Below are positions 4,796-58,509 of a DNA stretch of 64,000 nt, one piece after another. This DNA is from a bacterium (GTDB lineage: Bacteria > Patescibacteriota > Dojkabacteria > GCA-016699595). The notes under the pieces are model-generated. The model worked only from the letters and a program-made list of their open reading frames with translations, did not search any database and was not told where the DNA came from. The DNA lies in the NCBI GenBank assembly GCA_016699595.1, contig CP064982.1, positions 643,118 through 707,117 of the forward strand, given 5' to 3'. The number at the start of each line of letters is the position of its first letter. Positions within the stretch are counted from its first letter, which is position 1. The position numbers and the translations under genes are program-made.

Positions 4796-7126
4796 TTAAG
4801 AATGATTAATATTTGCTTGCCTCTTATACAAGGAAATTCCAAAACTAAATATTATTGAAGATAATATCAGATTTGGCAAACTACTTGCACCAGTTTCTCC
4901 TAGTATAGCACCTCCATCACCATTTCCTGTATCTGTCACTCCCAACACCGCAGGATTTGTTACAGTAACTGTATCTGAACTTGTATTATTAGCAGGATCT
5001 AGATCGCCACAAGCAAAGTAAACAGATGCTACATTCGTTGATGTTGTTTGAGTTTGATTTGTTATACTTACATTTATATTTATTTGAGATACTTCATTCA
5101 ACTGCATCGACGAATTTCTTGTGCAAGTAACATTTTGACCAACTGCTCCACAAACCCAACCGTTACCAGCATATGATAAAAATTGCATACCTAAAGGCAA
5201 TGTATCATTCACAATAATCGGTCCATTTGCTACATTGGGACCATAGTTACTCACTGAGAGTGTAAATGTTCCTGATTGGCCTTTCACGAAATTACCTATA
5301 TGAGATTTGATTAAGTTCAAGTTAGTATTCAGACAAACATTTCCAGCGCTAGATGTTGAATTTGTGTTTGCAGTTTGTGTACCTGCTACGTCCCCACTAC
5401 TGGTAGTAGTGACTGTTAGTGAAGAAGTATTTGCAACTTGAGTAGTATTTGTACTATTTACAGTATTAGTAGAAGCATTCGAAACTGAGGATGACATTGA
5501 TCCTGATTCACTAGTATTAGTTAAGTCGGAGGTATTTTGACTTGCTACACTTGATAACGAGTTGGTTGCTGAAGAACAGCTGCTTTGACACCTCACGCAA
5601 TTATTAACAATATTATTAATATTCTCAATATTTAGATTGTTATTATTGCCTATTATATTTATGTAAAAAACAGTAGTAGTCGCCATGTTTGAACAAGAAT
5701 TCTGACAAGTCATTTGATTACAAGTATTTTGCGAGCCAGCTATTTCTGATGAAATTGTACTAGTAGAATTTGCAGATATTGATGTACTTGTAGCTGTCCC
5801 TACTGAACTAAGTGTAGAATTACTTGTTGCAGAAGAATCTAAACTACTTACACTTGTACTGTTGATTTGAGTTGATGTATTACTAGATGTTGTAGAGCAA
5901 GAGCAATTACTAATTGTTGAACATTGAGCTTCATTCTCACAATTATTACAACAAGAATTTCCACAATAGTTATTCTCAAAGTGTTGATTTACTTCATTAT
6001 CATCACCAATAACAACTGCACCTTGAAAATTACCGCCGAAGTTGATATTTATTGGGTAAATCGAATTTATAGATGTTGAAGCGAATTGCGATGTTGAGGA
6101 GGTCATTGTAGAAACGGTAGAAACCGAACTAGTAGAAGATCCTGAACTATTCATACTACTTAGAGTCGAAGTCACAGTAACTGCACTTGATGCTGAGTCA
6201 GATGAAGTACTTGCTGTACAAACATTTGCAGTGACTAGTGTAGGGCCTATAAATGATATATTTTCATCAGTACCTTGTGTTGAAGATATACCTGCTACTT
6301 CGAACGGTAGTTCACCTTCTACATTTGTACTATTGACCGTATCATCGTCCCCAACAATTACAAGCATTTTTGATACTTTCGTTGAATCATCGGCTAGAAA
6401 TCCAATCCACCTTGTTGTTTTATTTCCACAACCTACATAATAGTTTTCTGAACTAGTCGAACCACACAGAGATTGATTTGAAGTACTTGTCGCTATGTTG
6501 GCATTTCCAATCTCATCATTGTCTTCATTATAATATTTAACAAATGCCAATGCTCCACCAAATACATCTGGATTTCGCGTTTCAAGATCTCCGAACCATG
6601 TACCAAATGCACTTACTGGACTAGAAAAACTAAACAAAAATCCAATTCTATTTCCATCTTCTGCATTTAGCAATTCATTTACATAACAACTATTATCCAC
6701 AAGGGATTGTGGTCTTGGAGAACTATCTTGAAGTATACTAGAATTTCCACATCCTGAAACTTTGCTATTCCAGTCACTGGTTCGATTTATCATATTCTGC
6801 GTCGAATCTATTTCAACAACCTGAACATGAACAGAAACTCCGTTTGCAACTACTAAATTTGTACCATCAAAAGAGTCATTTAGCAGTTTACGAGTGATCA
6901 GTGTTGAATTCTCTCCGTTGCATTGATACAATTCAGTTACATCTGAATACCACTCATTGTCTAAATCATCAACAGCACTGCGTATTGACTGTGTATTTGA
7001 ACCATTACCAACTTCATTGGATATATAGGATGTTACTGCAGCTTGAGATTGAGACGGAAACAAAATCGTGAATGCAGAAAAAAGCAAAAATGTATACGAT
7101 ATTGTTTGGACAGTTTTTTTGAACAT
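4796..7126 (-). CDS. large secreted Ser/Thr-rich, Cys-rich surface protein with a DUF11-type repeat domain and a C-terminal LPN-type anchor
   Basis: Signal peptide [29 protein letters not shown]. Long S/T-rich tracts. Cys clusters ([18 protein letters not shown]). DUF11-like segment [49 protein letters not shown]-terminus ...[25 protein letters not shown]. Confidence 0.7.
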
Positions 7127-7185
7127 AATAAAGTTTTCTACCTAACAAACTTGGGGAACTTGTTCGGCAGCTAATAAATAAATTG

Positions 7186-9417
7186 TTAATTTGATCTTTC
7201 AACTTTTTCTATAAATTGAATATCCTTTTTTAATGTATGTAAATTCATTTTTGTAACTATTGATAATACAAAGATCAATCCTACGACAAAAAATACAAAA
7301 CCCTTTTTCGAACTATCAGTAATTGCTGAGTTTGGTAATGTACTACTCGAAGTTATATTCACTGAACTAGCCAAACTTGTCAGTAATGAACTTCTTGTAT
7401 CACTCATGGATGATGTACTAACCTCACTTGAAACTGAACTAGACATTGAAGTGATATCGGTACAACTAGCAGAACAATTTACACTCAAACCACCATTGAC
7501 TCCATTGCATGACCAATTCGCTGTTCCATTATTAAATGTTGAAATATTACTTGATACCCCCTTTTGACATAAATCATATAAAGCTCTTGAACAAGAACCA
7601 ACTGAACCATTTGCTCCTCCGCAAAGACCATCGACCGGAGTACTAACTACATCGATATTCCACCCGTCACAATTATCGTAGTTATCATAGTTATTGACTG
7701 TATTGATAGGGTTGGAAACTACATCACAATTAATGTCTGTAGTATCAATTTCTCCACCTCCTGAGACACTAGCTACGTTTGAAATATTACCAATAAATCC
7801 TGTGTTTATGTTTGCAACAACTGTAATTATGGAATTTTGATTCACTCCTAATGCTTGACTTCTTGTACATGTAATATCATTACCTACATTACTACAATTC
7901 CAGTTAGTTCCACTAGCACTAACGAAAGTCAGTGTAGAAGGAAGATTTTCTGTAACTACTATTGGACTATTTGTTGCAACCTGACCTACATTCAGAACCT
8001 TAAGTTGGTAACTTACTTGTCCGCCTGTGGTGACATTTGTATCTGAAGTCTTTTGTATTATCAAATTTGGGTACTGAGCAACTGGAGTACTAGTAGTTGA
8101 GCTAGTTGCTGGTGTACTTGTTGGTGTTGAGCTTGAGACTGGGTTACTGCAACTAGCAGAACAATTTGCACTTGTTCCACCATTTGTTCCACTGCATGTC
8201 CATGAAACAGTTCCATTGGAGAACGTAGGATTTGCAGGATTTGCTGTCCCCTGTGCACATAGTGGTGTGAGAGTTCTGCTACATGATCCACTAGTTCCAT
8301 TTGCACTTCCACATACTCCATTGACTGGAGTTGGTGGTTTCAAACAACTAGCAGAACAATTTGCACTTGTTCCACCATTTGTTCCACTGCATGTCCATGA
8401 AACAGTTCCTCCATTTTGTGGGTATGAAATTGTTTCACTACCAGCATTACCTGGGTTACATAGATCTCCTGTAGGTATACTAGTGCCACATGTCCCTGTT
8501 CCTCCATTTGCACTTCCACATACTGCATTTATTGGAGTTTGCGTAATTGTCAGCGTCCAACCGTCACAATTATCTTGATTATTATCATTATTACTGTCAT
8601 TATCACCTTCTAGGTCTGCATCGCATGCCCAGTCAGTAGTATCACCATCTGTTGTATCGGTTGAATCTATAATTCTTGCATGGTCAACAATAGTATGGTT
8701 TACTGGTGCATTATCATTGATCTTCACATATACCTTTACAACTGTATCCCATACATTTATTGAAGGTACATATTGTTTTGTCGTTGTACATACTACTCTA
8801 TGATTTGGATTGTTGGGTGGATTTGGATCGTACTTTGTACATGTCCATCCAGTTCCTGCTACTAGTGATTGGTATGTATAGTATTCTCCTTGGACGGGTG
8901 CTTCTAGAACTGTAATTGTTCCATTTGTAGAAGCATTACCTATATTTGATATTTTCACTGTGTATTCAATTGTATCACCTGCTTTTGCTGAGCTTGCATT
9001 ACCTTGCTTTTGTATTATCAAGTTTGGCTTTGTAACAACTTGTGTACATGATTTGCCTGTTGTACACATAGCAGATACTGTCATTCCATCGGACGGTCTT
9101 GCTAGATTACAAGATACACCTGAGTTGGTAACGTATCCACTAGGTTTATATTCGGTAACATCAATTATTCCCCAGTCTAGTTGAACAGATCCACATCTAT
9201 CATATGGAGCTGTAGAGTTCATTGGATAATTTCTCCCGACTGTAATATTTTTTGTTTCTCCTGCTTGTAGCGTGATCTTTTGAACTGATTTATCGTTTTG
9301 GCCTGGATTTTGATCGCATGAGAAGTATTGATTATCTTGATCATCCCAGTGACTACCGTATTGTGACATACAAGAGTATGTCATTGATTCATTGTGGCAG
9401 TTTACCGTATCTAACAT
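7186..9417 (-). CDS. large Cys-rich repeat surface protein (two DUF11-like domains, three ~60-aa six-Cys repeats, S/T stalk, LPNSA + TM anchor); probably the 3' part of a frameshift-split gene
   Basis: Repeats of the form ...CGSANGGTGTCG..LCNPG..GTVSWTCSGTNGGTSANCSASC occur three times. DUF11-like blocks: GDTIEYTVKISNIGNAST.. and GGQVSYQLKVLNVGQVATNSPIVVTENLPSTLTFV.. C-terminus: SSSTLPNSAITDSSKKGFVFFVVGLIFVLSIVTK. No signal peptide at the annotated Met, and a TAG lies in frame just upstream. Confidence 0.65.
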   Translation of the reverse strand: MLDTVNCHNESMTYSCMSQYGSHWDDQDNQYFSCDQNPGQNDKSVQKITLQAGETKNITVGRNYPMNSTAPYDRCGSVQLDWGIIDVTEYKPSGYVTNSGVSCNLARPSDGMTVSAMCTTGKSCTQVVTKPNLIIQKQGNASSAKAGDTIEYTVKISNIGNASTNGTITVLEAPVQGEYYTYQSLVAGTGWTCTKYDPNPPNNPNHRVVCTTTKQYVPSINVWDTVVKVYVKINDNAPVNHTIVDHARIIDSTDTTDGDTTDWACDADLEGDNDSNNDNNQDNCDGWTLTITQTPINAVCGSANGGTGTCGTSIPTGDLCNPGNAGSETISYPQNGGTVSWTCSGTNGGTSANCSASCLKPPTPVNGVCGSANGTSGSCSRTLTPLCAQGTANPANPTFSNGTVSWTCSGTNGGTSANCSASCSNPVSSSTPTSTPATSSTTSTPVAQYPNLIIQKTSDTNVTTGGQVSYQLKVLNVGQVATNSPIVVTENLPSTLTFVSASGTNWNCSNVGNDITCTRSQALGVNQNSIITVVANINTGFIGNISNVASVSGGGEIDTTDINCDVVSNPINTVNNYDNYDNCDGWNIDVVSTPVDGLCGGANGSVGSCSRALYDLCQKGVSSNISTFNNGTANWSCNGVNGGLSVNCSASCTDITSMSSSVSSEVSTSSMSDTRSSLLTSLASSVNITSSSTLPNSAITDSSKKGFVFFVVGLIFVLSIVTKMNLHTLKKDIQFIEKVERSN
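8110..8540. repeat. two tandem ~195-bp (65-codon) near-identical repeat units inside the surface-protein gene, with a third diverged unit near 7440-7640
   Basis: A 64-nt identical stretch, aactagcagaacaatttgcacttgttccaccatttgttccactgcatgtccatgaaacagttcc, occurs at ~8151 and ~8347. The repeats also generate mirrored spurious ORFs on both strands (8061-8321, 8216-8578, 8340-8528). Confidence 0.75.
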
Positions 9418-9778
9418 CTATTGTATAGCCAGTTGTATTTCTCAAAGACAAAGTTTGAGTTAGGGAATCATTACTGTTGTTTCTTGTTCCACATCTATAT
9501 GCATCTTCTTTACTATATATCCCTCCAGATTGTGGGTCTCCGTAAAAACTACAGCCAGAATTACAATTATCTGATACTGATTCTATCTTCACTCCACATG
9601 TAATATTACTAGCAGGTGTAGGTATCTCTACTGCCCTCCCACTAAATGCTGAAGGTCGATCGGGAGCAATATTTTGCTTTCTTAAAATATTACTAATAAC
9701 AAGAAAACTTGCAACTAGAAGAATCAGAAAGATTATGAGTAAAACCAAAGATAATTTTCGTTTGTTTAAATGCAACAT
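9389..9778 (-). pseudogene. signal-peptide-bearing 5' fragment (129 aa), probably the N-terminal part of the 7186-9417 surface protein separated by a +1/-2 frame change
   Basis: MLHLNKRKLSLVLLIIFLILLVASFLVISN is a signal/anchor. It overlaps the downstream ORF by 29 nt in a different frame. The downstream ORF has no signal peptide although it has a C-terminal sorting-type anchor. Confidence 0.45.
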
Positions 9779-9848: not shown

Positions 9849-11627
9849 TCAATTCCCTGGCCACTTCATATTCCATTCTTTCATAATAGATACTTTTTCA
9901 AAATATGTTTTGTTTACTGGAAGCAGGTAAGCGAATGGATAATACAATATGTAACCAAGCAAAATAGCTAATAATGTCAGTATGATAAAAATTAGATTAA
10001 ACAAATCATTAAGTTCAAGTAGCTTCAATATACCAGATCTACTGAAAATAGATTTAGAACTTGGATCTGGATTTGGTTTCAAATTACTTTTAATATCATC
10101 CATTTCATTAAGATGTTCTTTGACGAAATCTTGCAACACATTGATCCTTGGCATTAGATAAAAATGTAAGATATACCCAAAGAGGATCATCCCAATAAGT
10201 AGTGCTGGCATATAATGATACATATACATAACTCTCTCTATAAGAGCGTAAGGTAACCAGTTGCCAAAGTATAATACAATAAGCCCTACCAAGACAGCAT
10301 CTTTAGATTCAAAATTTCTAAGGTTCAACAACTTCAGTAATAAAATGCTGACAGAAATAATGATTGATAATAGGGATATAAGCCAAATTACCGGATTTCC
10401 TACCAAGTAAACAAAAGCGTATTCATTTGATCCATCTGTTGACCAAAAATAACTTATCGTTCTACTCATGATAGGCCAAGTCATCCAACTAGACCCTATT
10501 TCATCTGGCTTTGTAAAATCTAGAGCAGGTACATTCTTGTTGTATCTAAGTTGAATAGAAGTATAGGCTTTCAGTTTGCACCAGTATGTCGCTGTATTCG
10601 TATTATTTCGTAAATCATTGACCCATTCAGGACAAAAATCGCTTACTTCTGCATTGTTTACATCTGGCAAAGCATTCCAATTTTTGATCATTGCAAAATG
10701 CATTGCAAAAATTGAGAGGTATATTAGGAGAGATATTCCCAAAATAGAACCAAGTTGGAGAATAGTTTTCGAAGTAACACTAAGAATAGTATTTGTCCAT
10801 GATTTCAACGATAATCTCACTTTATTTATATTTAACTTGCTACTGAACTGGTCTGCTTTTGAATTTATCAAATCAAGTAATTCGTCTCTTCTTAAAGTAT
10901 ATACTCTGTAGTTCTTTGCAAATAACAAGATAGCTAGAAAAGCAATTGTAGATATTGCAAACCATTTTGTAGATATTGCTAAACCCAAGGTGATACCACT
11001 AAGAAATGCCCAAAGCAATTGCATTTTCTTGTCTGCTGTATAGAAATATTTCAAACTGAAAAACATAGTTAACAGAATAAAAAATAATAAGATCTGCGAC
11101 AAAAGAGCATATCTTGACTCCACAATATAGCTAATCTCGAAAATACCAAGAAGTGATGCCATAAAGGGAACTATGTAACTTTTTGACCTACTTTTGTAAT
11201 TGATAATTTCATACACAATCAAAAATAGCATTGGTCCTATCATACTCCCAAATAATCTTGGAAATAATCTAAACCCTTCTGTATTCAATAAATTTTTATA
11301 ATTATCGAGCTTATTGCCTAATTGTGTAGAATCTAAAGATTCTTTGTTTGATAGGCCTCCTGGTGCTGTACCATCATATATTTTACTGCCTAAATAGAAA
11401 AGAAACTTACCCAAGGGGGGGTGTATATCAAAGTAATACTGGTTGAAGTAATAATTCTCAGTTTGAGGTATGAAGTATGCTTCATCAAATACAGTAGAAT
11501 CAGTTGGTTTCACAGTTACAGAAAACTTTCCAGAGTCATCAATATAAGGTTGAAATCGCGTCCATAAAGATAACAGAAGTATTAAACAGAAAATCAACCA
11601 TTTTGTTGGGTTAAGGAATTTTGACAT
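9849..11627 (-). CDS. GT39-family (PMT-like) protein O-mannosyltransferase, GT-C fold
   Basis: The first-loop motif FDEAYF..YYFDIHPPLGKFL matches the PMT family signature (FDEVHF..FFFDVHPPLGKLL). Polytopic membrane protein of 592 aa. Confidence 0.65.
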   Translation of the reverse strand: MSKFLNPTKWLIFCLILLLSLWTRFQPYIDDSGKFSVTVKPTDSTVFDEAYFIPQTENYYFNQYYFDIHPPLGKFLFYLGSKIYDGTAPGGLSNKESLDSTQLGNKLDNYKNLLNTEGFRLFPRLFGSMIGPMLFLIVYEIINYKSRSKSYIVPFMASLLGIFEISYIVESRYALLSQILLFFILLTMFFSLKYFYTADKKMQLLWAFLSGITLGLAISTKWFAISTIAFLAILLFAKNYRVYTLRRDELLDLINSKADQFSSKLNINKVRLSLKSWTNTILSVTSKTILQLGSILGISLLIYLSIFAMHFAMIKNWNALPDVNNAEVSDFCPEWVNDLRNNTNTATYWCKLKAYTSIQLRYNKNVPALDFTKPDEIGSSWMTWPIMSRTISYFWSTDGSNEYAFVYLVGNPVIWLISLLSIIISVSILLLKLLNLRNFESKDAVLVGLIVLYFGNWLPYALIERVMYMYHYMPALLIGMILFGYILHFYLMPRINVLQDFVKEHLNEMDDIKSNLKPNPDPSSKSIFSRSGILKLLELNDLFNLIFIILTLLAILLGYILYYPFAYLLPVNKTYFEKVSIMKEWNMKWPGN

Positions 11628-11630
11628 AAG

Positions 11631-13154
11631 TTAGTTTTTCGAATTAGGTTCTGACGAAAGCTTATCCAGAAGTTCTAACCATTGATTTTTGATGTTATAC
11701 TGAGAATACTTCTTAGCTTGTAGATATCCCAGCTCTATTTTCTCTTTAACTTCTTCCGAATCTCTATGTGTCAATATTTTCATTAGTTGCTCGCTTGCAT
11801 CTTTTATATCATAAGGGTCAGTATAAAAAGCTGCGTCACCTTGTGCCCATTTATGTACTGGAATTCCAGAAGACAAAACTGGACATCCACATGCCATAGC
11901 TTCTAGAGGAGGCATACCAAAACCTTCTTCAAAAGAAATAAAAGTGAATGCCTTAGCCATTGACATCAATATTCTGATTTCTGAGTTTGTTACATCAGAA
12001 AGCAATATGAATTCCCCCTTCAAAACATGGCTTCTCATGCTAGCAATAATATCTTGATACATCCAACCTAATCCACCTACATAAATATATTTTAGCTTCC
12101 TTTTGTTTTGGATAAAATACTTATCAGCAATCTCCGAATACATCTTAAGCATTCCCAAAATATTCTTCCTTGGCTCAATAGTTCCAACGGTTAAAATATA
12201 GTCGAATTCCAGGTTTTGCAATTGTTCTAAAATTTTATCTTTTTTGTCATCGTCAATGATTCCAAAAACATTTAAGCTGTATCGGCTTTCTATAATGTTT
12301 AAGAGCTTGGTTGCGTTCACTTCGTTAAAGTATATATCAGAAATAGCAGGAGCAATTGAAAAAGCATTTTCATTCCTTAAATTAGGATACATGCTTTGAA
12401 AATCCTTTATTACTGGCTCCGAATCAGCGACAAAAATGCTGCCAGTTTTTATTGATTGTCTTATGCTTTGATCTTGATACATTGATCTGTGAAATGCTCC
12501 TGCTACATATGTTGGACACAGTATCGGAATCAAATCATACACTCGTATGATTTGCTTAGTATTAGGGGATACTTTCAATCCTCTTTCAGTTGCAGTAATG
12601 AAGAAATCAAATTCATATGTATCAATGTTAGGTCGAGGTAACTTACTAGAAACTCTACTTCTTTGAATATCGGAAAAATCTGAATAGTTAGCTATGAATA
12701 TCTGAACATTACTCAGCTTGTCCCTGACATCTTTTGTAATAACCTTTGTCAAGAATTTGTCAATTATTAAATTATTGAAAACCTTGTCTATCTTGATTAG
12801 TTGAAAACTTCTTTTAAATAAAACATCATATACATGTGATAATAATTTGAGATTATTATAAAGTTTAGCTAATCTGCCGAGTCTATTTATAACCACACTG
12901 TCTGATCCAGTCAAAATTGCTACAGCCTGTGAATCTGCAACGATCTTTTGAGATTTAGATTTATGTTGTGAGTTTTTTAGTTTATAAATATCAAGTCTAC
13001 CCACAACATCGTACCAAAGTAGACTGATGTCGTACTTGTCATCTTGTATTAGCGCCTCCATGACCCGAAATAAATCCTGCTGAATCCCGCTTGCATAGTG
13101 TCCAGTATTGGCCATGTTGATAAGTACTTTTGTTTTTTTTGATGAATTTTCCAT
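11631..13154 (-). CDS. glycosyltransferase family 4 (GT-B, retaining)
   Basis: C-terminal motif FISFEEGFGMPPLEAMACGCPVLSSGIP is typical of GT4 (EX7E region). Confidence 0.7.
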   Translation of the reverse strand: MENSSKKTKVLINMANTGHYASGIQQDLFRVMEALIQDDKYDISLLWYDVVGRLDIYKLKNSQHKSKSQKIVADSQAVAILTGSDSVVINRLGRLAKLYNNLKLLSHVYDVLFKRSFQLIKIDKVFNNLIIDKFLTKVITKDVRDKLSNVQIFIANYSDFSDIQRSRVSSKLPRPNIDTYEFDFFITATERGLKVSPNTKQIIRVYDLIPILCPTYVAGAFHRSMYQDQSIRQSIKTGSIFVADSEPVIKDFQSMYPNLRNENAFSIAPAISDIYFNEVNATKLLNIIESRYSLNVFGIIDDDKKDKILEQLQNLEFDYILTVGTIEPRKNILGMLKMYSEIADKYFIQNKRKLKYIYVGGLGWMYQDIIASMRSHVLKGEFILLSDVTNSEIRILMSMAKAFTFISFEEGFGMPPLEAMACGCPVLSSGIPVHKWAQGDAAFYTDPYDIKDASEQLMKILTHRDSEEVKEKIELGYLQAKKYSQYNIKNQWLELLDKLSSEPNSKN

Positions 13155-13158
13155 GTTT

Positions 13159-14181
13159 TTAAAAATCTTTTTTGTCGCGAATATCGCTTTCTACCATTAA
13201 TTTGGCAAGCATTTTTGCATTAGTGTGGGCTTTCCAACCAAGTTCTTTTTCTGCCTTTGCAGCATCCCCCAACAGCAAATCTACTTCTGCAGGTCTATAG
13301 AATTTGGGATTGACCTTTACAAGCACTTTACCGCCTTCTTTATTTGTCGCAAACTCATTTTCATCCTTGCCATCCCAGACTAACTCTATACCTATATGGA
13401 AATAACATTCGGTTACAAAATCTCGAATCGAAGTAGTTTCTCCAGTTGCCAACACATATACATCTGGATGATCAGCTTGCAATATCTTGTGCATACCTTC
13501 AACATACTCTTTGGCATAACCCCAGTCACGCTTCGCATCTAAATTGCCTAGTTCTAAAAGAACATCTTGACCTTTTGCAACCGCTGCTGCATGCATGCTA
13601 ATCTTCCTAGTAACAAATTCTTGTCCCCTCAACTCGGATTCATGATTAAAAAGAATACCTGCAGTAGCGAATATATTGTAACTTTCTTGATAATTTCTTA
13701 CCATCCAATGCGCATATAATTTTGCTACACCATATGGACTTCTTGGATAAAAAGGCGTGGTTTCGGATTGCGGTGTTTCCTGCACCTTACCAAAAAGCTC
13801 GGATGTTGAGGCTTGGTAATACCTTATATCAGGTTTTAACTCCCTAAAGATCTCAAGTTGTTTTGCTACACTAGCTCCATCTATATCAAGTGTAGTAAGA
13901 GGTTGCTTGAAACTAGTTCCTACAAAACTTTGCGCTGCTAGATTATAGAATTCTTCCGGCATAACATCTTTTATAACCTGTCTCATATTTTCAAACTCAG
14001 ACAATTCAAATTCATGCATCGTTATTTGGTCCAAGATCCCTAGATACTTTAACTTAGGATAGGATGGATTACTTACTCTACGCACTCCTCCGTGGACTTC
14101 ATATCCAAGTGATAATAAATATTTTGCAAGCCAAGCACCATCTTGACCTGTAATACCAGTTATAAAGGCTTTCTTTGACAT
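13159..14181 (-). CDS. gmd: GDP-mannose 4,6-dehydratase
   Basis: AFITGITGQDGAWLAKYLLSLGYEVHG..YNLAAQSFV..YYQASTSELFGKVQETPQSETTPFYPRSPYGVAKLYAHW..ILFNHESELRGQEFVTRKI matches Gmd almost residue for residue. Confidence 0.9.
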   Translation of the reverse strand: MSKKAFITGITGQDGAWLAKYLLSLGYEVHGGVRRVSNPSYPKLKYLGILDQITMHEFELSEFENMRQVIKDVMPEEFYNLAAQSFVGTSFKQPLTTLDIDGASVAKQLEIFRELKPDIRYYQASTSELFGKVQETPQSETTPFYPRSPYGVAKLYAHWMVRNYQESYNIFATAGILFNHESELRGQEFVTRKISMHAAAVAKGQDVLLELGNLDAKRDWGYAKEYVEGMHKILQADHPDVYVLATGETTSIRDFVTECYFHIGIELVWDGKDENEFATNKEGGKVLVKVNPKFYRPAEVDLLLGDAAKAEKELGWKAHTNAKMLAKLMVESDIRDKKDF

Positions 14182-14192
14182 AAATTTAAAAT

Positions 14193-15653
14193 TTAGTTAA
14201 TAATATAAAATATTTTGTTTTCACATTTTATCATATAGAATCCATTTGCACACTCTTTGTTTATTTTTATATCTTTGTTAGATAATTTAACTATATATTC
14301 AATACTGGAATGAAATGCGTTGTAGTTATCTTGCAAACAGACATTTGAATCATTCGGGACTTTATCAATAATAAAGTTCATATCAACTGTATCAAATAGA
14401 CTGTCTTGAGAAGTAAATTGATTATCAATATACGACATTGTTTGTTTGTAATTTATCCCGATTGAAATGGCAATAAATGAGATTACGCAAATCCCAAGTA
14501 GCAAATTTCTGCTATTTATAGATACCCTCAAGAGGATGATAAAGTATAACATCACCAATATGGTAATAAGATATTGGTAATGAAAATGAATGTCACCAAA
14601 GTACATAGTTGCAAAAACCATATAAATAAGAAATATTGAAGCCGAGAGCTTCAATATGACATTACCTTTGAATAGTTTTTTTGACTCAGTGATAACAAAA
14701 AGTAATAATCCAGAACCCAATGATAAAGAGAATTTATCTAAGCTGTCTTTTGGAATTAAATATTTGGAAAACAAGTAATACAGCGTTCTCCCAAAATTGT
14801 TTAGGAGATCATCAAGGGTGTGGATTTCATTATTTGAACTTGCGAACAACTGCTTAATAAGATTCAATGAATTTACGAAGTGATTTTGAATTTCAGCATA
14901 TATATAAGGTATATGTAGAAGAAAAATTATGAGTAAACTAGCTAGAGCGCCAGGAACCGAGGACTTTCTATCCTTCATCATTTTGTATGCAACCGTTATC
15001 AAATATTGCATAGGAAATATCATCAGAGTAGTTGAATGTAGATTTGACCCTATCGCAGTCACAAGCCCTAAAAGTATCCACAGATAGAGACTTGGATTAC
15101 TTCGCTTGAGTACTATGTAACTTAGTAGTAACAAACTGATCGTAAAAAATGGAATCGGCGTTGGGTTCCATTCTACATCAGCAAGTATGACATCATTTAC
15201 GAGACACAACCACCAAACTGAGGATAGTATGGGCAAGTAAATCAGTAACAATTTATCTAACAGCTCAGATCGTACCTTCGAATCAGATATCATGTCCTTT
15301 ACCACAAAATAAACCAACAATCCAAATAAGAATATAGTAGAGAACGAAAAAACTGCATTTGGAATTACTTGGATCTTTGGATCATCACTGAGATAAACTG
15401 TTGGAGATATAAGATAATAATACAATGGAGGTAACGAATAGTTTCCTTGAGATGAAGCTGGACCTAATGTAATTAGTTGTCCCGTGTCTTTCATATGCGA
15501 AATTACCAATGCATCTCTTCCTTGATCACTTAAAAAGCCATGATAATAGTTAATCGTTCCAAATCTTGTATAACAAGCGAAAGCAAAAATAACTATCCAA
15601 ATAATTAATATAAATAATTTACTTGTCGTTAATTTTACAAATTTATTTAACAT
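14193..15653 (-). CDS. polytopic membrane protein, GT-C-like (ArnT/PMT-like) putative glycosyltransferase
   Basis: About 12 TM segments. An acidic first-loop motif GFLSDQGRDALVISHMKDTG resembles the DE-x-RYA loop motif of ArnT/PMT enzymes. Confidence 0.4.
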   Translation of the reverse strand: MLNKFVKLTTSKLFILIIWIVIFAFACYTRFGTINYYHGFLSDQGRDALVISHMKDTGQLITLGPASSQGNYSLPPLYYYLISPTVYLSDDPKIQVIPNAVFSFSTIFLFGLLVYFVVKDMISDSKVRSELLDKLLLIYLPILSSVWWLCLVNDVILADVEWNPTPIPFFTISLLLLSYIVLKRSNPSLYLWILLGLVTAIGSNLHSTTLMIFPMQYLITVAYKMMKDRKSSVPGALASLLIIFLLHIPYIYAEIQNHFVNSLNLIKQLFASSNNEIHTLDDLLNNFGRTLYYLFSKYLIPKDSLDKFSLSLGSGLLLFVITESKKLFKGNVILKLSASIFLIYMVFATMYFGDIHFHYQYLITILVMLYFIILLRVSINSRNLLLGICVISFIAISIGINYKQTMSYIDNQFTSQDSLFDTVDMNFIIDKVPNDSNVCLQDNYNAFHSSIEYIVKLSNKDIKINKECANGFYMIKCENKIFYIIN

Positions 15654-16851: not shown

Positions 16852-16874
16852 GCTGAATATAAATCAGAAAACGG

Positions 16875-17912: not shown

Positions 17913-18095
17913 TAAATTAATTATTTCTTACGAAGAAAACTTGTAAGTTATAAAACACTTATTTCGCACATAAAAAGGCATGTATTTACTTTACAAAAAA
18001 CTCCATTTTAAAAGTGCCTTATTTTACGAATTTGATTATCAGGACTCTCAAATTCAAAACGGTATTCATTTTTGAAAGAAAACCTACCAGCTTTA

Positions 18096-20056: not shown

Positions 20057-20065
20057 TAGTTTGGT

Positions 20066-26377: not shown

Positions 26378-26920
26378 CGTCGTATTTTAGCATATCTAGC
26401 AAATTTATATGTAACAAGATCCATTCTGGGAAATATCAGTATATTTATAAACAAACCTAATTAAGATTGTCAATATAAATCAACTTAAAAAGATATTTTT
26501 ATCCAAGCATTATTTTCATAATTCTTAGAATATTTTTTACATTTATAAACACTGCATTGAAATTTAAATTTGACAATGTTTGCATAATCCACAGTCATAA
26601 TGACTAAAAGTTTGCATTTTTATTTTGTAAAACAAAATAAAAAATTTTCTCATTTTTTACTTGCAATCATTTCAAAAATTTTGTAAAAATGTATTGGGAT
26701 CTTTTAAGTATAACTTAGTTACTAAATCTAGAAATTACTCAAGGCAATTTATTGCCACACAAGACTTGAAGGATTCAAGTTGCTTGTGTAATTTAAAAGA
26801 AAGATCAAAATTATTTTTGATAACTTTTATAGAATAATTATTTGGATTTTGTATAGACTAGTCGATAATGAAATGCGCAATCATTATTTATCGTAACTAA
26901 TGTGGTTTTAACTTAGGGAT

Positions 26921-26990: not shown

Positions 26991-26991
26991 T

Positions 26992-27000
26992 TGTGGATAA
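26992..27000 (-). promoter_or_regulatory. perfect DnaA box (TTATCCACA on minus strand) ~85 bp upstream of the dnaA start
   Basis: The plus strand reads tgtggataa. Confidence 0.6.
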
Positions 27001-52180: not shown

Positions 52181-52609
52181 TTATTCTTGACAGGCAGTAT
52201 TTAATGGAAGTTCGTCAGCCATCCAAGAAAGATATCCAAAGGCTTCTCCCAAGGTTAGTTCTGGTTTATTGTTTTGTGCTGTTGAACATGCACTTGCTAC
52301 ATCATAAACTCGTCCTCTGCATTCATTCTTCCAGTAAAATTTTCCTTCTTCGCTTAAGACATTATTCCAGCAAACTGCTTTGTAGTCTGTTTCAAGAATT
52401 TCAGATTCATTTTCTTTTTCTGAATTTGCATAATATGATGACTTTTTCGAATTATATGCATCCATAACTTTTTGAATATTATCATCTACCTTCGCTGATG
52501 TCCTGTTATCAAGACTTGGACCTAGTAAGTTATAAAGTATCAATCCAGTAAGTATTGTTATGGTGACAAGTAACACAAAGGCTATTGATTTATTTAGTGA
52601 GTTTTTCAT
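52181..52609 (-). CDS. N-terminally anchored or secreted small Cys-containing protein (142 aa)
   Basis: Signal/anchor IAFVLLVTITILTGLILYNLL, with four Cys in the exported domain. Last gene of the co-oriented small-membrane-protein array. Confidence 0.45.
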   Translation of the reverse strand: MKNSLNKSIAFVLLVTITILTGLILYNLLGPSLDNRTSAKVDDNIQKVMDAYNSKKSSYYANSEKENESEILETDYKAVCWNNVLSEEGKFYWKNECRGRVYDVASACSTAQNNKPELTLGEAFGYLSWMADELPLNTACQE

Positions 52610-52631
52610 ATTTTAATATAAAATAAAATTA

Positions 52632-53006
52632 TTAATTACAAATTGTAGGAAAAATGAAATCAAACTTGATCTGTTTTCCATTTACTATACTAGTATTTTT
52701 GTCAAAACAGTTTGCTGGATCTTTGATACCTACAATAATTGCAAATGTGCTTACTATAAGCCAAGCAAAAAAAGTTACAATTATCCTAATAATTGGTGCA
52801 AACAAAGTTCCTCTAAGTAATTCTGAATAATTCTTCACAGAATCAGTATTCACAAGATACTGAATAACTCTCAAAGAAATCTGAACCGTTGACAAAAAGA
52901 TCGACAGCGTCATCATTGCACCTATTGCATACTTGATGACTGTTTGTATTTCTGACAAAGCTGGAAACATATGTAGAAGTGTAAAACAAAAAAAAAAAGA
53001 AGTCAA
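52632..53006 (-). CDS. small membrane protein (124 aa), TM-loop-TM hairpin plus Cys-containing tail
   Basis: AIGAMMTLSIFLSTVQISL - loop - APIIRIIVTFFAWLIVSTFAIIVGI, then ..CFDK..PTICN. Confidence 0.45.
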   Translation of the reverse strand: MTSFFFCFTLLHMFPALSEIQTVIKYAIGAMMTLSIFLSTVQISLRVIQYLVNTDSVKNYSELLRGTLFAPIIRIIVTFFAWLIVSTFAIIVGIKDPANCFDKNTSIVNGKQIKFDFIFPTICN

Positions 53007-53049
53007 TCTAAATTGATTGACTTCTTAAAAAGAATTGATTTATCTCAGC

Positions 53050-53556
53050 TTAAATATTACATTCACCGTCACCTCCAAGTAAACAATTTACAAAATCATT
53101 TACATTTTGGTTCTCACCTAAATCTGCGTTTTGTATATTCATTGCATAAAGTGCCACTGCACCTACAAGAACAAATCCAAATAACAAACCTGCCATTGTT
53201 GCAAAATTCTTTGTTCTCTTTATTGCTGCTTCTTTGCTTTTTTCATCGTCAGATTTTCTCATGTTTGACAATATACCCAAAACTGTCAAAACAACTGCTA
53301 CTGCAAACATTATGACGATTACCCATGTTGCAACTGTCTTTCCTACATTGAAAGTGGTTTCCACTGCACCACCTGGATTTGTAACAATCGTTTCACCTAA
53401 TTTATTTGAACACATACTTTCTAAAATAGGAATCCCTTGAAACAAACATGATTGTGCTTGAGTTGACTCAGCAAAAACTGTAGGTACCGAAAGAGAAAAT
53501 AAAGCCATGACAAAGGTCACAACCATCATTACTTTTGTTGAAATACTTTTATACAT
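53050..53556 (-). CDS. small membrane protein (168 aa): signal peptide, Cys-containing ectodomain, TM-loop-TM hairpin
   Basis: Signal MMVVTFVMALFSLSVPTVFA. Hairpin TWVIVIMFAVAVVLTVLGIL-SNMRKSDDEKSKEAAIKRTKN-FATMAGLLFGFVLVGAVALYA. Paralogous to the 202-aa protein (loop motif R.SD.EKS.E.A.K). Confidence 0.5.
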   Translation of the reverse strand: MYKSISTKVMMVVTFVMALFSLSVPTVFAESTQAQSCLFQGIPILESMCSNKLGETIVTNPGGAVETTFNVGKTVATWVIVIMFAVAVVLTVLGILSNMRKSDDEKSKEAAIKRTKNFATMAGLLFGFVLVGAVALYAMNIQNADLGENQNVNDFVNCLLGGDGECNI

Positions 53557-53617
53557 ATATTTTTGTCCTAGAAATCAGTTTTGATTCTAGCAATTTTTCA
53601 TTTAATAATTTTGTTAT

Positions 53618-54226
53618 TTATTTACAAACTGTTTCATTGCAAGCATCCAAACAGCCTTGGTATTCTACTTGTGCTGCTGGAGTTCCTGCTAGTGATCCAG
53701 TCAAAATCTTTGCACATTCGTTTTGACAACGTTCACACATTGTATATCCTCCACCACCTTCACACCCAGCCGGCAATGTTTCGTTCCTTCGAATATAATA
53801 TATGGCCATATTACCATTGTCACAAACTTGAAATGCATTTACTTTCATTCCTTTACCAATTGTAGCATAAATTGCTAAATTCATCAATGGAATAAATAAT
53901 ACTATAAGTAATATCATAGTTACAAGTGATTTTACAACTTTTTTTGCCTTTTCTGGAGACTTTTCATTGTCTGACTGTCTAGCTAGATTCAATATCTTGA
54001 CAATCTTTGCAGTAAATAGAAAAAGTATAAGTCCAAGTATAATTATCTTCACAACCTCTAAACCTGCTACTATAACTAAACTACTTGCATCGTTTGAAAG
54101 CAAGCTATACCCCGGCAACATTTTCGAGAGCAAGGTTGTGGCCTTAGCATCTCCAAATATTTGAGTAACCAAGTCAGTTGTTGAAGCTAATGCTAGGAGT
54201 TTATTAAAAATATTTATCGGTGCCAT
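53618..54226 (-). CDS. small membrane protein (202 aa): TM-loop-TM hairpin plus a C-terminal 9-Cys domain
   Basis: VIVAGLEVVKIIILGLILFLFTAKIV-KILNLARQSDNEKSPEKAKKVVKS-LVTMILLIVLFIPLMNLAIYA, then ..VCDNG..GCEGGGGYTMCERCQNECAKIL..GCLDACNETVCK. Confidence 0.5.
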   Translation of the reverse strand: MAPINIFNKLLALASTTDLVTQIFGDAKATTLLSKMLPGYSLLSNDASSLVIVAGLEVVKIIILGLILFLFTAKIVKILNLARQSDNEKSPEKAKKVVKSLVTMILLIVLFIPLMNLAIYATIGKGMKVNAFQVCDNGNMAIYYIRRNETLPAGCEGGGGYTMCERCQNECAKILTGSLAGTPAAQVEYQGCLDACNETVCK

Positions 54227-54255
54227 TTTATTTTCTGTTATTTAATGTGAATTGA

Positions 54256-54861
54256 TCAAAGTCTAAATCCAACTTGCCAAAAGTAACCTAAATCTGCTAA
54301 CTTGGTAAAGACAGATGCAACAATTACAAAAATTCCCAACCCAAGTAATACTGAAATCTTGTACTTGCTACTCTTCATAAAGTTTTCCATACCCTTCTCT
54401 TCATCAAATCCAACTATAAATATATCATAAAATACCTTCAAAATCAGAATAACTATTATTGCCGAAACTACTATAAAAGCTATATCTGCAAATATTCTTC
54501 GTACTGTGAAGTTAAATGCTTCGTTACCTGCTTCATAACTTCCTGTTGCACTGTTGCATTGAAACCTAGTACAGGCGACATCATACTTAATCCTCCAAAA
54601 ATCATTGTAAAAGCTATCAAACCCAGTAAATAGTATATTATTTTTCAAATTAATTTGTGTTTGTATGTTATTTGAGTCTGAGTTCAGACATTCCGCCCAA
54701 GATATATATGAACCATCGTCTTTCAAACATGTCCCTTTATCAACTGCGTTTAAATTGCTAGAAAAAACTACAAACGCAAAAATTGTAATTGCTAAGAATA
54801 AAAATGCCTTTGTTGGTTTGAATAAGTAAAATTTTATATCAAGAAGATTCTTCATTTTCAT
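54256..54861 (-). CDS. small membrane protein (201 aa): signal peptide, 4-Cys ectodomain, TM-loop-TM hairpin
   Basis: Signal AFLFLAITIFAFVVFSSNLNA. Ectodomain ..GTCLKDDGSYISWAECLN..VACTRFQCN. Hairpin IAFIVVSAIIVILILKVFYDIFIV-GFDEEKGMENFMKSSKYK-ISVLLGLGIFVIVASVF. Confidence 0.5.
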   Translation of the reverse strand: MKMKNLLDIKFYLFKPTKAFLFLAITIFAFVVFSSNLNAVDKGTCLKDDGSYISWAECLNSDSNNIQTQINLKNNILFTGFDSFYNDFWRIKYDVACTRFQCNSATGSYEAGNEAFNFTVRRIFADIAFIVVSAIIVILILKVFYDIFIVGFDEEKGMENFMKSSKYKISVLLGLGIFVIVASVFTKLADLGYFWQVGFRL

Positions 54862-55226
54862 TATGTAATCAAATTTGCAGGAACACCTAAGACTGCAAGA
54901 ACCAACGCTATCAAAACACTACCAAATAACGCTACTCCTAATAATATTATTTTGAATCCTATTGTCGAATAGAACTTTTTTCTAGATTCTGGACTATAAT
55001 TCGATGATAACAGTCCAAAACCAGCAGTTAAAATTATACTTACAAATGTAAATATGACTACCATTGGCAATATCAATGACGAAAACCTGTCTATCAATTG
55101 AGGAATACTATCAATCGCTAATGGATTTTTGACTTCAAGACTTGCTGCCACCAATCCTTTTTGAAAGAATACAAACAACAATAAAGTAGTAGTTGATATT
55201 TTTAATTGTTCAATGACTTTGTACAT
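54861..55226 (-). CDS. small membrane protein (121 aa): signal-like segment plus TM-loop-TM hairpin, no Cys
   Basis: TTLLLFVFFQKGLVAAS; then LILPMVVIFTFVSIILTAGFGLL-SSNYSPESRKKFYST-IGFKIILLGVALFGSVLIALVLAVLGV. A VirB2/TrbC-like topology. Start overlaps the stop of the next gene. Confidence 0.5.
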   Translation of the reverse strand: MYKVIEQLKISTTTLLLFVFFQKGLVAASLEVKNPLAIDSIPQLIDRFSSLILPMVVIFTFVSIILTAGFGLLSSNYSPESRKKFYSTIGFKIILLGVALFGSVLIALVLAVLGVPANLIT

Positions 55227-55246
55227 ATTAGATTAACTTAATACTT

Positions 55247-56380
55247 TTAATCAATTCTCATCGTCATTATCAAATGAAGATAGTTATCTTCCCCATAAAA
55301 TAGTGCTGGAGAATTGGCATTTTTTGTTTGGAATATTATATCATCTTTTGAAAAACATCTCAAAGCATCTTGCAAGTACTTTAGATTGAATGCAATATCT
55401 AGTTCCTCTTGTCCTTGGTTTTCAACGATCATTGTTGTTTCAATTTTACCTTTCTCAATATCTGTTGAAAAAATTTTTAAATTCTTTCCTCTTAGTGAGA
55501 GTATAGTTTTATAACCAAGTAGATTTCTTGACACATTATTTACAATTTTCAAATTCATCAACATCTCATCTCTATTGAAAATAAATTTGTAACTTTCTTC
55601 TGTTGGAATTAAACTTTTGTAATCTGGGAAATTTGCATCAATTATTCTTGCAAAACAAGATATCTCATTCTTTTCAACAATTCTAAACTCAACTTGACTT
55701 AAATTTCCTTCTTTATCATCTATTGGGTATAGTTTTACTTGGTCAAAATCAAAATCAAGTAACGATTGAAATATTGATGCGTTTAATATAAATGGCTTTT
55801 TCAATTTTGACATTGTAGAAACTTCTAATTTGGCTAATCTAAAACCATCTACTGAAACAAGATGCACATTTTCTTTATTATCACTATTTAGAAAATCAAA
55901 GTAAATGCCCTCTAGTGCTGGTCTTGAAGGATCTTGTGATATTGAACTCAATAGTTTATCAACAATATTTTGAACTTCTTGCCTACTTAGTGTCATAAAG
56001 TTATCTTGGAAACTTTTGTCAAAGCTTGGAAATTCGTTTGACTCAGAAATACTAAAGTCTCCACTTGCAAAGTTTGTTTTCATCTCTAATTTATTTTTGC
56101 CAAAGTTCAACTCAACATCAACTTCTGGCAGTGAGCTTAGAAAACCTAGAAAATCTTTTGTTCCAATTGCAAAACTATCAAAACTTTCTAAGTTATCAAT
56201 TTCTGAAAAAGTATAAATAATTGATTTTTCAAGATCTGTTGCTTTTATTTGCAATTTACTTTCTTCAAATGAAAAAATGAGTTTTCCAAGTGAAGAGTCT
56301 ATCATCTTTGTAGATGAGAACTTTGAGATAGATACTAGTATCTTGGTTAATTTTGATGATGAAAATTTGAGTTTAGACAC
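55247..56380 (-). CDS. dnaN: DNA polymerase III beta sliding clamp
   Basis: N-terminus ..SKLQIKATDLEKSIIYTF and C-terminus YLQDALRCFSKDDIIFQTKNANSPALFYGEDNYLHLIMTMRID fit the DnaN pattern (YLlDaL...MPmRl). 377 aa. Confidence 0.8.
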   Translation of the reverse strand: MSKLKFSSSKLTKILVSISKFSSTKMIDSSLGKLIFSFEESKLQIKATDLEKSIIYTFSEIDNLESFDSFAIGTKDFLGFLSSLPEVDVELNFGKNKLEMKTNFASGDFSISESNEFPSFDKSFQDNFMTLSRQEVQNIVDKLLSSISQDPSRPALEGIYFDFLNSDNKENVHLVSVDGFRLAKLEVSTMSKLKKPFILNASIFQSLLDFDFDQVKLYPIDDKEGNLSQVEFRIVEKNEISCFARIIDANFPDYKSLIPTEESYKFIFNRDEMLMNLKIVNNVSRNLLGYKTILSLRGKNLKIFSTDIEKGKIETTMIVENQGQEELDIAFNLKYLQDALRCFSKDDIIFQTKNANSPALFYGEDNYLHLIMTMRID

Positions 56381-56760: not shown

Positions 56761-57198
56761 CTATAATTTCTTAGGATCAAATTGTTCAAAGCCAAAGTCC
56801 TTTGGTTGAAAAGTTAACAAGATTAAGTCATCAACAGATAAAACCTGACTTTTACTTTCCAAGTTATTCTGAACAATTGGTGGAATAGAAACATTATTAG
56901 TCAACCCATTAGCAAAATCAGACTCTAAAGAAACGGATGTACTTGAACTACCAGCTTGACCACTGTCAATGTTACCCATAGATATTAAATTATCAACTGA
57001 GAAATCTACTTGGGTAAGTTCAAAATCAAACTTCTCTTTGTCATTTTTTGCCCAAAAAACTTTGTGATTTAGGTCAACGAGGTCTTGTGTCAACTTAATC
57101 ATACTTTTAGTAATTTGAGTTTTCGTATTTACAAAAATATTCATATTAGATAAATTAAATATTGTAACTGAAAGGTTTGTTAATCTCTCCTCCACCAA
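56761..57198 (-). CDS. hypothetical protein (145 aa)
   Basis: ORF overlapping the upstream secreted-protein gene by 19 nt. No recognisable motif. Confidence 0.3.
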   Translation of the reverse strand: MVEERLTNLSVTIFNLSNMNIFVNTKTQITKSMIKLTQDLVDLNHKVFWAKNDKEKFDFELTQVDFSVDNLISMGNIDSGQAGSSSTSVSLESDFANGLTNNVSIPPIVQNNLESKSQVLSVDDLILLTFQPKDFGFEQFDPKKL

Positions 57199-57899
57199 AG
57201 TGCAAACTTTTTGAATAGAAAGATAAACAAAAAAATCAAAATTATGAACCCAAAGAACTTCAAACCGAATTTAATTCTTTCCCAAGTTTGATAATTTTTC
57301 TTAAATTCATCACTTTGAGGTGTAACTTGCAAATCCTTGTCAAAGTTAATAGTAATTGAAGTTACATCTGTTAAAGTCAAATCATTTTGCCAAGCTTGAC
57401 CATATATGTATATAGTTGTTGAACCTGACTTCTTGGGATATACATATAGTACAAAAGATTTTTTATCACCAATCTTCAATTTACCAACAACATTATTTGG
57501 AATAGACAATTCAACACTACTTTTATCGGGAGAAATGATATAGCTCAATTCAAACCTGTCAGTATCAATGAAAGATTCAATATTTAGTTCAATAGGTACT
57601 TTCAAAGAAAAAATATCTTGAATTCCTGGTTTTATTTTTAGAGAAAAACTATTTCCAGTACTATCTTTGATTACAAAATTTCCCTGGTTAATACTTGTTG
57701 AACTTGAATTCATCAATGGGTCTTCAGTTACTGAACTCGCTGAAACAATTGAACTATTAGTTGTAGAGACAAGCTCTTCTGCCGAGGTTTGTGAAGTAAG
57801 ACCCCATGCAGGCGTTACAAACAAACAGAACAACAATGTTGTTAGAAATATATATTTTTTCATATTAACTATATCATATAAAGGTAAAACAAACGTCAT
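57180..57899 (-). CDS. secreted protein with a C-terminal TM anchor (239 aa), hypothetical
   Basis: Signal peptide MKKYIFLTTLLFCLFVTPAWG (internal start likely). C-terminal FFGFIILIFLFIFLF plus KKFALWWRRD. Confidence 0.45.
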   Translation of the reverse strand: MTFVLPLYDIVNMKKYIFLTTLLFCLFVTPAWGLTSQTSAEELVSTTNSSIVSASSVTEDPLMNSSSTSINQGNFVIKDSTGNSFSLKIKPGIQDIFSLKVPIELNIESFIDTDRFELSYIISPDKSSVELSIPNNVVGKLKIGDKKSFVLYVYPKKSGSTTIYIYGQAWQNDLTLTDVTSITINFDKDLQVTPQSDEFKKNYQTWERIKFGLKFFGFIILIFLFIFLFKKFALWWRRD

Positions 57900-58164
57900 G
57901 TAAACTTTAAATTTACTTGAAGCAGTAATGCTTGTATTCTAAAAATTTAGAATTATAATTCTAGCTAAAATATTTACAAACAGATTATTTATAGATTATA
58001 AATAGCTATACATTTATACACTAAATGCAAAAAGTAATAAACTTGAAAATATATAAATTAAAAAAACGAAACAAAAATTGTTTACTTGCATTATTTTATA
58101 AAAATTGATAACCTACATCAATAAATTTAAATTAACCAATAGTTTTGTGATTGACTAAACAATA

Positions 58165-58509
58165 TTGGTAAAGAAATTAGTAATGCCCTTAATTGCTCAA
58201 AATCAAACAACGATCGATGTTGTAGCTAGACCTACCTTTGCTCAGAATTACTTTACTTCAAGTACGAAAACTTCAACCTTGACTTCTCAAAATGTACAAA
58301 CATCTTCAGTATCGAGTAAATCAAGTACTCAAGTAAGTTTATCTAGTATGTCAAGTCAAAGCGGACTTCCAAATAGTGCAATTGAATCAAGGTTTGTTTC
58401 AACAACTATTATAATTGTTTCAACAATTGTCATTCTACTATCAATATTTTTAAACTTCTTTAAGTACAAAAACTTACAAATTTTTGAAAAAACTATTTCA
58501 AAAGATTGA
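58165..58509 (+). CDS. small Ser/Thr-rich protein with a C-terminal LPNSA + TM + KYK anchor module; no clear signal peptide
   Basis: ..SSMSSQSGLPNSAIESRFVSTTIIIVSTIVILLSIFLNFFKYKN. The same LPNSAI motif appears in the 743-aa surface protein. Start codon is TTG, with a TAA two codons upstream. Confidence 0.4.
   Translation: MVKKLVMPLIAQNQTTIDVVARPTFAQNYFTSSTKTSTLTSQNVQTSSVSSKSSTQVSLSSMSSQSGLPNSAIESRFVSTTIIIVSTIVILLSIFLNFFKYKNLQIFEKTISKD

Follow-up and report, generated by a model that had tools for sequence, protein, structure and literature searches.

An LPNSAI box ahead of C-terminal membrane helices in a small-genome bacterium: a possible sortase-type sorting signal

Two proteins encoded in a 64-kb window of bacterial DNA, P2 (743 amino acids [aa], IPJ91_03210) and P3 (108 aa, IPJ91_03495), carry the identical hexapeptide LPNSAI outside a C-terminal membrane helix. 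The window is the whole stretch that was analysed and makes up ~8% of a complete 761,814-bp genome (locus tags IPJ91_). In P2 and P3, this box may be a cell-wall sorting signal of the sortase type and, more precisely, of the class D-like LPxTA kind, a reading to which we give a probability of about 0.4. An earlier note on this DNA had joined P2 and P3 to a third protein, P1 (776 aa, IPJ91_03205), as carriers of one common module consisting of a pentapeptide, a hydrophobic helix, and a basic tail, and had proposed this module as a noncanonical sortase signal. Translation recovered all three open reading frames (ORFs), and each of them ends in the described succession of motif, hydrophobic helix, and basic tail. 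The common motif holds for P2 and P3, which share LPNSAI; P1 shares only LPN, which is flush with its helix and is not followed by [ST][AG] at positions 4–5. The proposal is supported by the architecture, by the likeness of LPNSAI to LPNTA, and by the type of cargo, and it is weakened by the merging of P1 with the other two, by the absence of a leader on P3, by the frameshift in P2, and by Ser at position 4.

The LPNSAI box of P2 and P3

P2 ends in ..SSTLPNSAITDSSKKGFVFFVVGLIFVLSIVTKMNLHTLKKDIQFIEKVERSN and P3, which has no Pfam domain match, ends in ..SGLPNSAIESRFVSTTIIIVSTIVILLSIFLNFFKYKNLQIFEKTISKD, in each case directly before the stop codon. A hydrophobic helix of 15–23 residues and a net-positive tail are present in P1, P2, and P3 alike. 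The C-termini quoted previously were too short by 4 (P1), 20 (P2), and 11 (P3) residues, and the tail is 21 aa long in P2 and 15 aa long in P3, not 1–5 aa. The C-terminus of P2 is identical in an independent short-read assembly (L001), and P3 in another short-read assembly is the same but for one substitution in the transmembrane (TM) helix. The P3 ORF spans 58165–58509 (+) and is annotated from MPLIAQ at 58183, which gives the length of 108 aa. By 100% identity to proteins at NCBI, P1 is QQR93431.1, P2 is QQR93432.1, P3 is QQR93485.1, and the FtsZ of the window is QQR93490.1.

Motifs were counted over 62 window proteins (19,676 aa). The sharing of LPNSAI is unremarkable when taken alone, as different window proteins share 24 6-mers against 12.3 expected from shuffling. 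Its position is another matter: LPN occurs seven times, and three of the seven occurrences fall in the juxtamembrane zone (~100 residues in all, being the 20 aa upstream of the C-terminal TM helix in each of the five proteins with such an anchor), against 0.036 expected. Our own Poisson estimate for this enrichment is of the order of 1e-5 and is post hoc. Of three matches to the pattern LP.[ST][GAS], two are the P2 and P3 sites. It could be argued that short strings recur in a genome of low GC content in which L, N, S, and I abound, and that the three matches have no function; the number of shared 6-mers, the post hoc choice of the motif, and the restriction of the likeness of P1 to three residues would all be compatible with this. 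The concentration of LPN in the juxtamembrane zone and the retention of the box in orthologues amid a variable linker argue against such a coincidence, and we consider it very improbable.

In P2 and P3, the box holds the same place with respect to the helix, some 5–7 residues ahead of it. The two copies of the box are written in different codons, including codons from the unrelated Ser families (TCA in P2 and AGT in P3), and so they do not stem from a recent copy of DNA. Outside the box, the similarity between P2 and P3 is not significant (tails, p = 0.06; whole post-motif region, p = 0.15). We also considered a duplicated anchor module that would include the tail (IQFIEK/LQIFEK) and rejected it, because the similarity was not significant (p = 0.06 to 0.9).

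Orthologues of P3 are present in two other assemblies, with 44–51% overall identity. Their boxes read QPNTAID or QPSTAID and stand amid a variable Ser-rich linker, and P-x-[ST]-A-I-[DE] is kept. Relatives with QPNTAI or QPSTAI are represented by contig JBEFFE010099057.1 of assembly GCA_040364335.1 and by the runs SRR30164251, SRR30164240, and SRR11674035. No relatives of the P3 family were found in GTDB representative genomes or JGI metagenomes. The matches obtained with full-length P2 and P1 lay in the Cys-rich repeat or in the DUF11 repeats; an orthologue with a comparable C-terminus was not among them. When a profile of four C-terminal modules was run against 5.8 billion proteins in a word-indexed search, eight candidates were returned and none scored; by this search, the C-terminal module is not detectably widespread. 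The identical box in different codons, its dissimilar surroundings, and its conservation in orthologues together indicate that the LPNSAI of P2 and P3 behaves like a genuine short linear recognition motif rather than as a duplicated module.

When LPNSA is set against the sortase pentapeptide L-P-x-T-[G/A/S], it fits at L, P, and A, and position 4 is Ser, not Thr. In QPNTA and QPSTA of the P3 orthologues, the Thr fits and the Leu does not, and LPNLI of P1 fails the pattern. Streptococcal sortases take LPXTA and LPXTS. With nine mutations, the sortase fold can be made to read LPXSG, with Ser at position 4 (PMC9126251), a precedent that speaks for the sorting-signal reading. LPNTA is a class D signal in B. 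anthracis, where it is carried by BasH and BasI and read by SrtC (PMC3208642), so the earlier mention of this motif for a class D sortase in Bacillus is borne out. P2 and P3 resemble the class D signal in L-P-N-x-A with Ala at position 5, in the short spacer, hydrophobic helix, and positive tail, and in conservation that extends past the pentapeptide (compare the class D sortase described in NCBIfam as “LPxTATN-specific”); the Thr itself is present in QPNTA and QPSTA of the P3 orthologues. They differ from it in having Ser for Thr at position 4 (and Gln for Leu in the orthologues), in tails of 15–21 aa with conserved non-basic residues, and in the lack of a signal peptide on P3 and of an identified cognate sortase; moreover, the organism here has a small genome, probably belongs to the candidate phyla radiation (CPR), and is not a sporulating Firmicute. 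Because the LPNSA boxes of this genome lack Thr, P3 lacks a signal peptide, and no cognate sortase was identified, membership of class D cannot be claimed.

If the box is a sorting signal, the motif [L/Q]-P-[N/S]-[S/T]-A-I-[D/E/T] of P2 and P3 would be presented on the outer face of the membrane, before the single C-terminal helix and the net-positive cytoplasmic tail. The ectodomain would be exported, with the helix and tail holding the protein in the membrane. A membrane-bound cysteine transpeptidase, which we infer to be encoded elsewhere in the 762-kb genome, would cleave after position 4 (Ser or Thr) and would then join the S/T-rich, probably O-mannosylated, protein to the wall. The cargo is of a suitable type: Pfam matches DUF11 in P1 (6e-11) and in P2 (1.7e-8, plus DUF7507), as had been noted before, and a database comparison showed that DUF11 proteins of other bacteria often end in LPxTG or LAxTG followed by a helix and R/K.

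P1, the split P2 gene, and the neighbours of P3

P1 is a separate case. By inspection, it has a signal peptide (..FPSQSQA/AV). What it has in common with P2 and P3 is LPN; its positions 4–5 are L-I (LPNLI), and there is no spacer to the helix (LPN/LILSSIIF.., with the slash marking the boundary). A Pro 1–3 residues ahead of the helix is also present in a lamin-tail-domain (LTD) surface protein of the window (..NNSP/LIIL..) and in P0124, a paralogue of P2 encoded outside the window (..NIPES/ILIA..). The simplest interpretation of the LPN of P1 is that its Pro marks the helix boundary. Should P1 be sorted at all, the better candidate for its box is LGETG; the window proteins contain just one other match to L[PAG].T[GAS]. 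LGATG is the sortase A motif of BasJ in B. anthracis (PMC3208642), and in P1 the succession of LGETG, six residues, helix, and KRQ has the canonical spacing of such LGxTG signals. This likeness is confined to P1 and stands apart from the LPN motif.

P0124 (QQR93816.1, IPJ91_01505, 1048 aa), the one protein examined from outside the window, is encoded in the same genome. It is near-identical to P2 over ~690 residues and differs in the C-terminal part, which has extra DUF11-like domains and another anchor; it ends in ..PEVLGTTETPKEMPKTSGVLNLQNIPESILIAIILSSIIVAFGVAWPNLKKYS, in which the box MPKTSG is followed by a helix and KK. This exchange of C-termini between P2 and P0124 points to cassette-like variation of surface proteins. 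We also considered whether the anchors of P1 and P0124 might be homologous (PxVLGxTxT, ILSSII.FG); the evidence is weak (E = 0.26), and this candidate was set aside. A short-read contig (L102) ends shortly before the sequence that P0124 and P2 share, which is consistent with an assembly break at a repeat.

The P2 ORF itself has no signal peptide, and its signal-anchor N-terminus sits in the ORF upstream (IPJ91_03215). P0124 is continuous across the split point (..RYGKLPQNESMTY.., containing KLPQNESMTY), at which the DNA of the window reads CTG CCA CAA TGA. This is consistent with two missing A's, if P0124 uses AAT for Asn. The short-read contigs end ahead of the junction. The frameshift could be a homopolymer error, on the assumption that the source assembly is a long-read one, or P2 could be a real pseudogene; the N-terminal secretion signal of P2 is present only if the frameshift is an assembly error.

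The genes of the S/T-rich P2 and P1 are immediately preceded by a run of glycosylation genes (9849–21570, −). It encodes a PMT-family O-mannosyltransferase, GT1 and GT2 enzymes, a GT2-GtrA fusion, an FkbM methyltransferase, a phosphomannomutase-like enzyme, a nucleotidyl transferase, a GDP-mannose 4,6-dehydratase, and two large polytopic proteins without a Pfam match. The run looks like a protein O-mannosylation system for the stalks of P1 and P2.

The first 27 residues of P3 (MPLIAQNQTS.DVVARPTFAQNYFTSS) are almost invariant among its orthologues. An ApbE-family gene always lies directly 3′ of the P3 gene and its orthologues (58183–59652 in the window; 4000–5230 in L002 and 1775–3234 in L003, contigs of relatives), with an 8-base overlap between the pair in L002. 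The ApbE-family flavin transferase next to P3 has no signal peptide. We also considered whether the box could be a flavinylation site for ApbE or an N-glycosylation sequon and rejected both, because on inspection it matches neither consensus motif (no [S/T]GA[T/S] and no N-x-S/T).

A sorting signal, a membrane anchor, or a site for another enzyme

Sortases are frequent in CPR bacteria (PMC7143001) and are encoded in more than half of CPR genomes (PMC6744442). Locus L063, from Saccharibacteria, has a gene ending in ..APDTGFAAITANPVITLATAVLAAGAILFASKRLNGARK and, directly after it, a class F-like sortase gene (NF033748, E = 1.6e-31); a metagenome scan with this sortase gave 16 loci (L086–L101). 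The upstream genes, where present, end in [T/A/V]P[D/N/A]TG, usually then F, and the helix comes ~9 residues later, with a basic tail 8–20 residues long. On these Saccharibacteria-like contigs (L063, 7273–9831; L086–L101), the sortase is regularly preceded by a protein of ~250–590 aa where complete, usually ending in ..NDVVLT..[T/A/V]P[D/N/A]TGF. Judged by sequence, the Saccharibacteria sortase and its xPxTG substrate are a conserved gene pair. Like the modules of P2 and P3, these signals combine a pentapeptide with a helix and a long basic tail, a spacer of ~9 residues standing between pentapeptide and helix, and they likewise come from the CPR. They differ in always having Thr-Gly at positions 4–5, a following Phe, and an adjoining sortase gene, whereas here the box is LPNSA and no such gene is nearby. 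The long tails of P2 and P3 are no objection to a sorting signal, because the Saccharibacteria sortase substrates have basic tails of up to ~20 aa.

Several observations weigh against the sorting-signal reading. Position 4 is Ser in both P2 and P3, where sortase motifs have Thr; natural sortases disfavour Ser at this position (PMC9126251). All 13 of the sortase-adjacent Saccharibacteria signals that we recovered have Thr-Gly. In agreement with the earlier note, we found no sortase in the window, either as TLxTC in any frame or as a Pfam match among all ORFs, nor in ~4 kb past its end. The boxes are heterogeneous within one genome (LPNSA, LGETG, and MPKTSG), and P0124, which has the same body as P2, bears a different, LPXTG-like one (MPKTSG). 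Two other C-terminally anchored secreted proteins of the window, the LTD protein and a 239-aa protein, are without such a box. The P2 gene is interrupted by a frameshift. There is no N-terminal signal peptide on P3. Finally, the P3 tail (KY..IFE..SK) is conserved in the orthologues, with a score reached by 0/5000 shuffles, which would be unexpected for a discarded peptide if P3 were sorted.

The two box-free proteins have two exact 7-mers in common (NDLTLTD and NSSSTSI) and no common Pfam domain. The anchor of the 239-aa protein (..VTPQSDEFK.N.QTWE, helix, WW[K/R]RD) is conserved in the relative represented by L002.

Plain stop-transfer anchoring would account for many of these observations. 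The proteins would be bitopic and would keep both helix and tail, and the box would be a juxtamembrane Pro hinge or helix cap that is never cleaved. Such a reading is favoured by the conservation of the P3 tail, by the appearance of P3, which without a signal peptide looks like an N-out tail-anchored membrane protein, and by the anchoring of other surface proteins without an LPxTG-like box, in one case by an anchor that is conserved in a relative. The Pro residues 1–3 positions before the helix in P1, the LTD protein, and P0124, as well as the outcome of the sortase searches of the window, point the same way. Left unexplained are the identical six-residue string that occurs in dissimilar tails and in different codons, the charged spacer that separates the box of P2 and P3 from the helix, and the close match to an enzymatic signal, LPNTA. 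We regard plain anchoring as a real possibility, to be held tentatively.

The box could instead serve some other enzyme: a shedding or maturation protease, a different C-terminal sorting pathway (of exosortase, archaeosortase, or rhombosortase type), or the neighbouring glycosylation machinery, which would use it as a mark. Ser rather than Thr at position 4, conservation reaching positions 6–7 (A-I-[DE]), the PMT-centred mannosylation cluster that adjoins P1 and P2, and the tight coupling of P3 to ApbE would be in keeping with this. In exosortase-type systems, the motif directly abuts the helix. The PEP-CTERM and PGF-CTERM signals of exosortases and archaeosortases resemble the modules found here in layout, with a helix between a short motif and a basic cluster, and the LPN of P1 does abut its helix; in P2 and P3, by contrast, the motif is set off from the helix by a charged spacer. 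Pfam searches of the window revealed no exosortase, archaeosortase, rhomboid, or CPBP-type protein. The NCBIfam sorting-signal models, for LPXTG anchors as well as for other C-terminal sorting domains, matched neither the full proteins nor their C-terminal fragments, and a positive control (a Saccharibacteria APDTG signal beside a sortase) also gave no match. The modules thus lack the marks of exosortase, archaeosortase, or rhombosortase signals: a model match, a cognate enzyme in the window, and, in P2 and P3, a motif without a charged spacer. A site for an enzyme of one of these other kinds is unlikely in our estimation.

A further proposal is that a Ser-tolerant, extended box, [L/Q]P[N/S][S/T]AI[D/E], is recognized by an enzyme, either a divergent sortase or one that is not a sortase, whose specificity has co-evolved in each genome, and that this enzyme also acts on the leaderless P3, translationally coupled to a cytoplasmic-looking ApbE. 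We consider this doubtful. If it were true, LPNSAI twice in this genome and QPNTAI or QPSTAI in its relatives would reflect a genome-wise specificity, and a protein without a Sec signal peptide could by this route be displayed on the wall.

Genomic setting and implications

The G+C content of the window is low (~32%). Its genes include recA, dnaA, dnaN, ftsA, ftsZ, polA, and many glycosyltransferase genes, and metabolic genes are few. Among the matches listed for its RecA, the best (69%) is a Saccharibacteria metagenome-assembled genome, and the others (~60%) come from unrelated phyla. The source organism is probably a sparsely sampled small-genome bacterium of the CPR, the placement by RecA being approximate. 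The features of the anchored proteins and their neighbours are collected in the table below.

Table 1. Positions of the anchored proteins, their boxes, and neighbouring genes in the window
Feature	Positions	Strand	Basis or remark
LTD surface protein (comparison): C-terminal helix, KQK tail, no LPN/LPxTG-like box (..SINNSPLIILAVLVATSFAAIFLYTKQK)	2385..3728	−	Pfam, translation
P1: DUF11 protein, cleavable-looking signal peptide, C-terminal anchor	4796..7126	−	Translation, Pfam, QQR93431.1
P1 LPN (4871–4879) abutting helix (4826–4870), tail KRQANINHS (4799–4825)	4799..4879	−	Translation
P1 LGETG, residues 742–746: LPXTG-like box 6 residues upstream of hydrophobic helix	4889..4903	−	Translation, motif count
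P2: S/T-rich, two DUF11 domains, three Cys-rich repeats, LPNSAI anchor module	7186..9417	−	Translation, Pfam DUF11 and DUF7507, QQR93432.1
P2 TM helix FVFFVVGLIFVLSIVT (7252–7299) and 21-aa tail KMNLHTLKKDIQFIEKVERSN (7189–7251)	7189..7299	−	Translation; assembly L001
P2 LPNSAI box, residues 694–699, 7 residues ahead of TM helix	7321..7338	−	Codons TTA CCA AAC TCA GCA ATT
Upstream ORF IPJ91_03215, 129 aa: P2 signal-anchor N-terminus	9389..9778	−	Frameshift relative to P2 at ~9389–9417; paralogue P0124 continuous
PMT-family protein O-mannosyltransferase, directly upstream of P2 and P1 genes	9849..11627	−	Pfam PMT and PMT_4TMC
239-aa secreted protein (comparison): C-terminal helix, WWRRD tail, no such box	57180..57899	−	L002 orthologue ends ..KWWKRD
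P3: small S-rich protein, conserved 27-aa N-terminus, no signal peptide, LPNSAI anchor module	58183..58509	+	Translation, QQR93485.1
P3 LPNSAI box, residues 62–67, 3–5 residues ahead of TM helix	58366..58383	+	Codons CTT CCA AAT AGT GCA ATT
P3 TM helix (58393–58461) and 15-aa tail KYKNLQIFEKTISKD (58462–58506)	58393..58506	+	Tail conserved in orthologues
ApbE-family flavin transferase, immediately downstream of P3	58540..59652	+	Pfam; synteny in L002–L004

Elsewhere in the window, dnaA (27084–28445, +) lies at a change of sign in the GC skew, which is negative to ~28 kb, near zero to 36 kb, and positive beyond, and perfect or near-perfect DnaA-box 9-mers are present at 26585, 26992, and 27090. 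The region 26378–28445 is probably the replication origin. The dnaN gene (55247–56380, −) is 28 kb away from dnaA, and downstream of it on the same strand are six small ORFs in a row (52181–55226, −; 121–202 aa), several with two hydrophobic helices, several with Cys-rich ends, and none with a significant Pfam match. A 526-aa ORF (38271–39851, +) encodes an unusual fusion in which a thymidylate-synthase-like core is flanked by an MtrA-like domain at the N-terminus and a PterinBD-DUF4346 domain at the C-terminus.

If the modules of P2 and P3 are only membrane anchors, they represent ordinary surface-protein architecture. If the box is a real sorting signal, it would be of a known kind (class D LPNTA/LPxTA), and what would be new is that a CPR lineage uses an extended version, LPxSA(I), that tolerates Ser. 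The natural specificity of sortases would then extend to Ser at the scissile position, and a naturally LPxSA-specific sortase, if one exists, could be a useful enzyme for orthogonal ligation. A working box would also provide a first handle on how large, S/T-rich, adhesin-like proteins are fixed to the envelope of ultra-small, probably episymbiotic bacteria, which bears on how such bacteria attach to their hosts.

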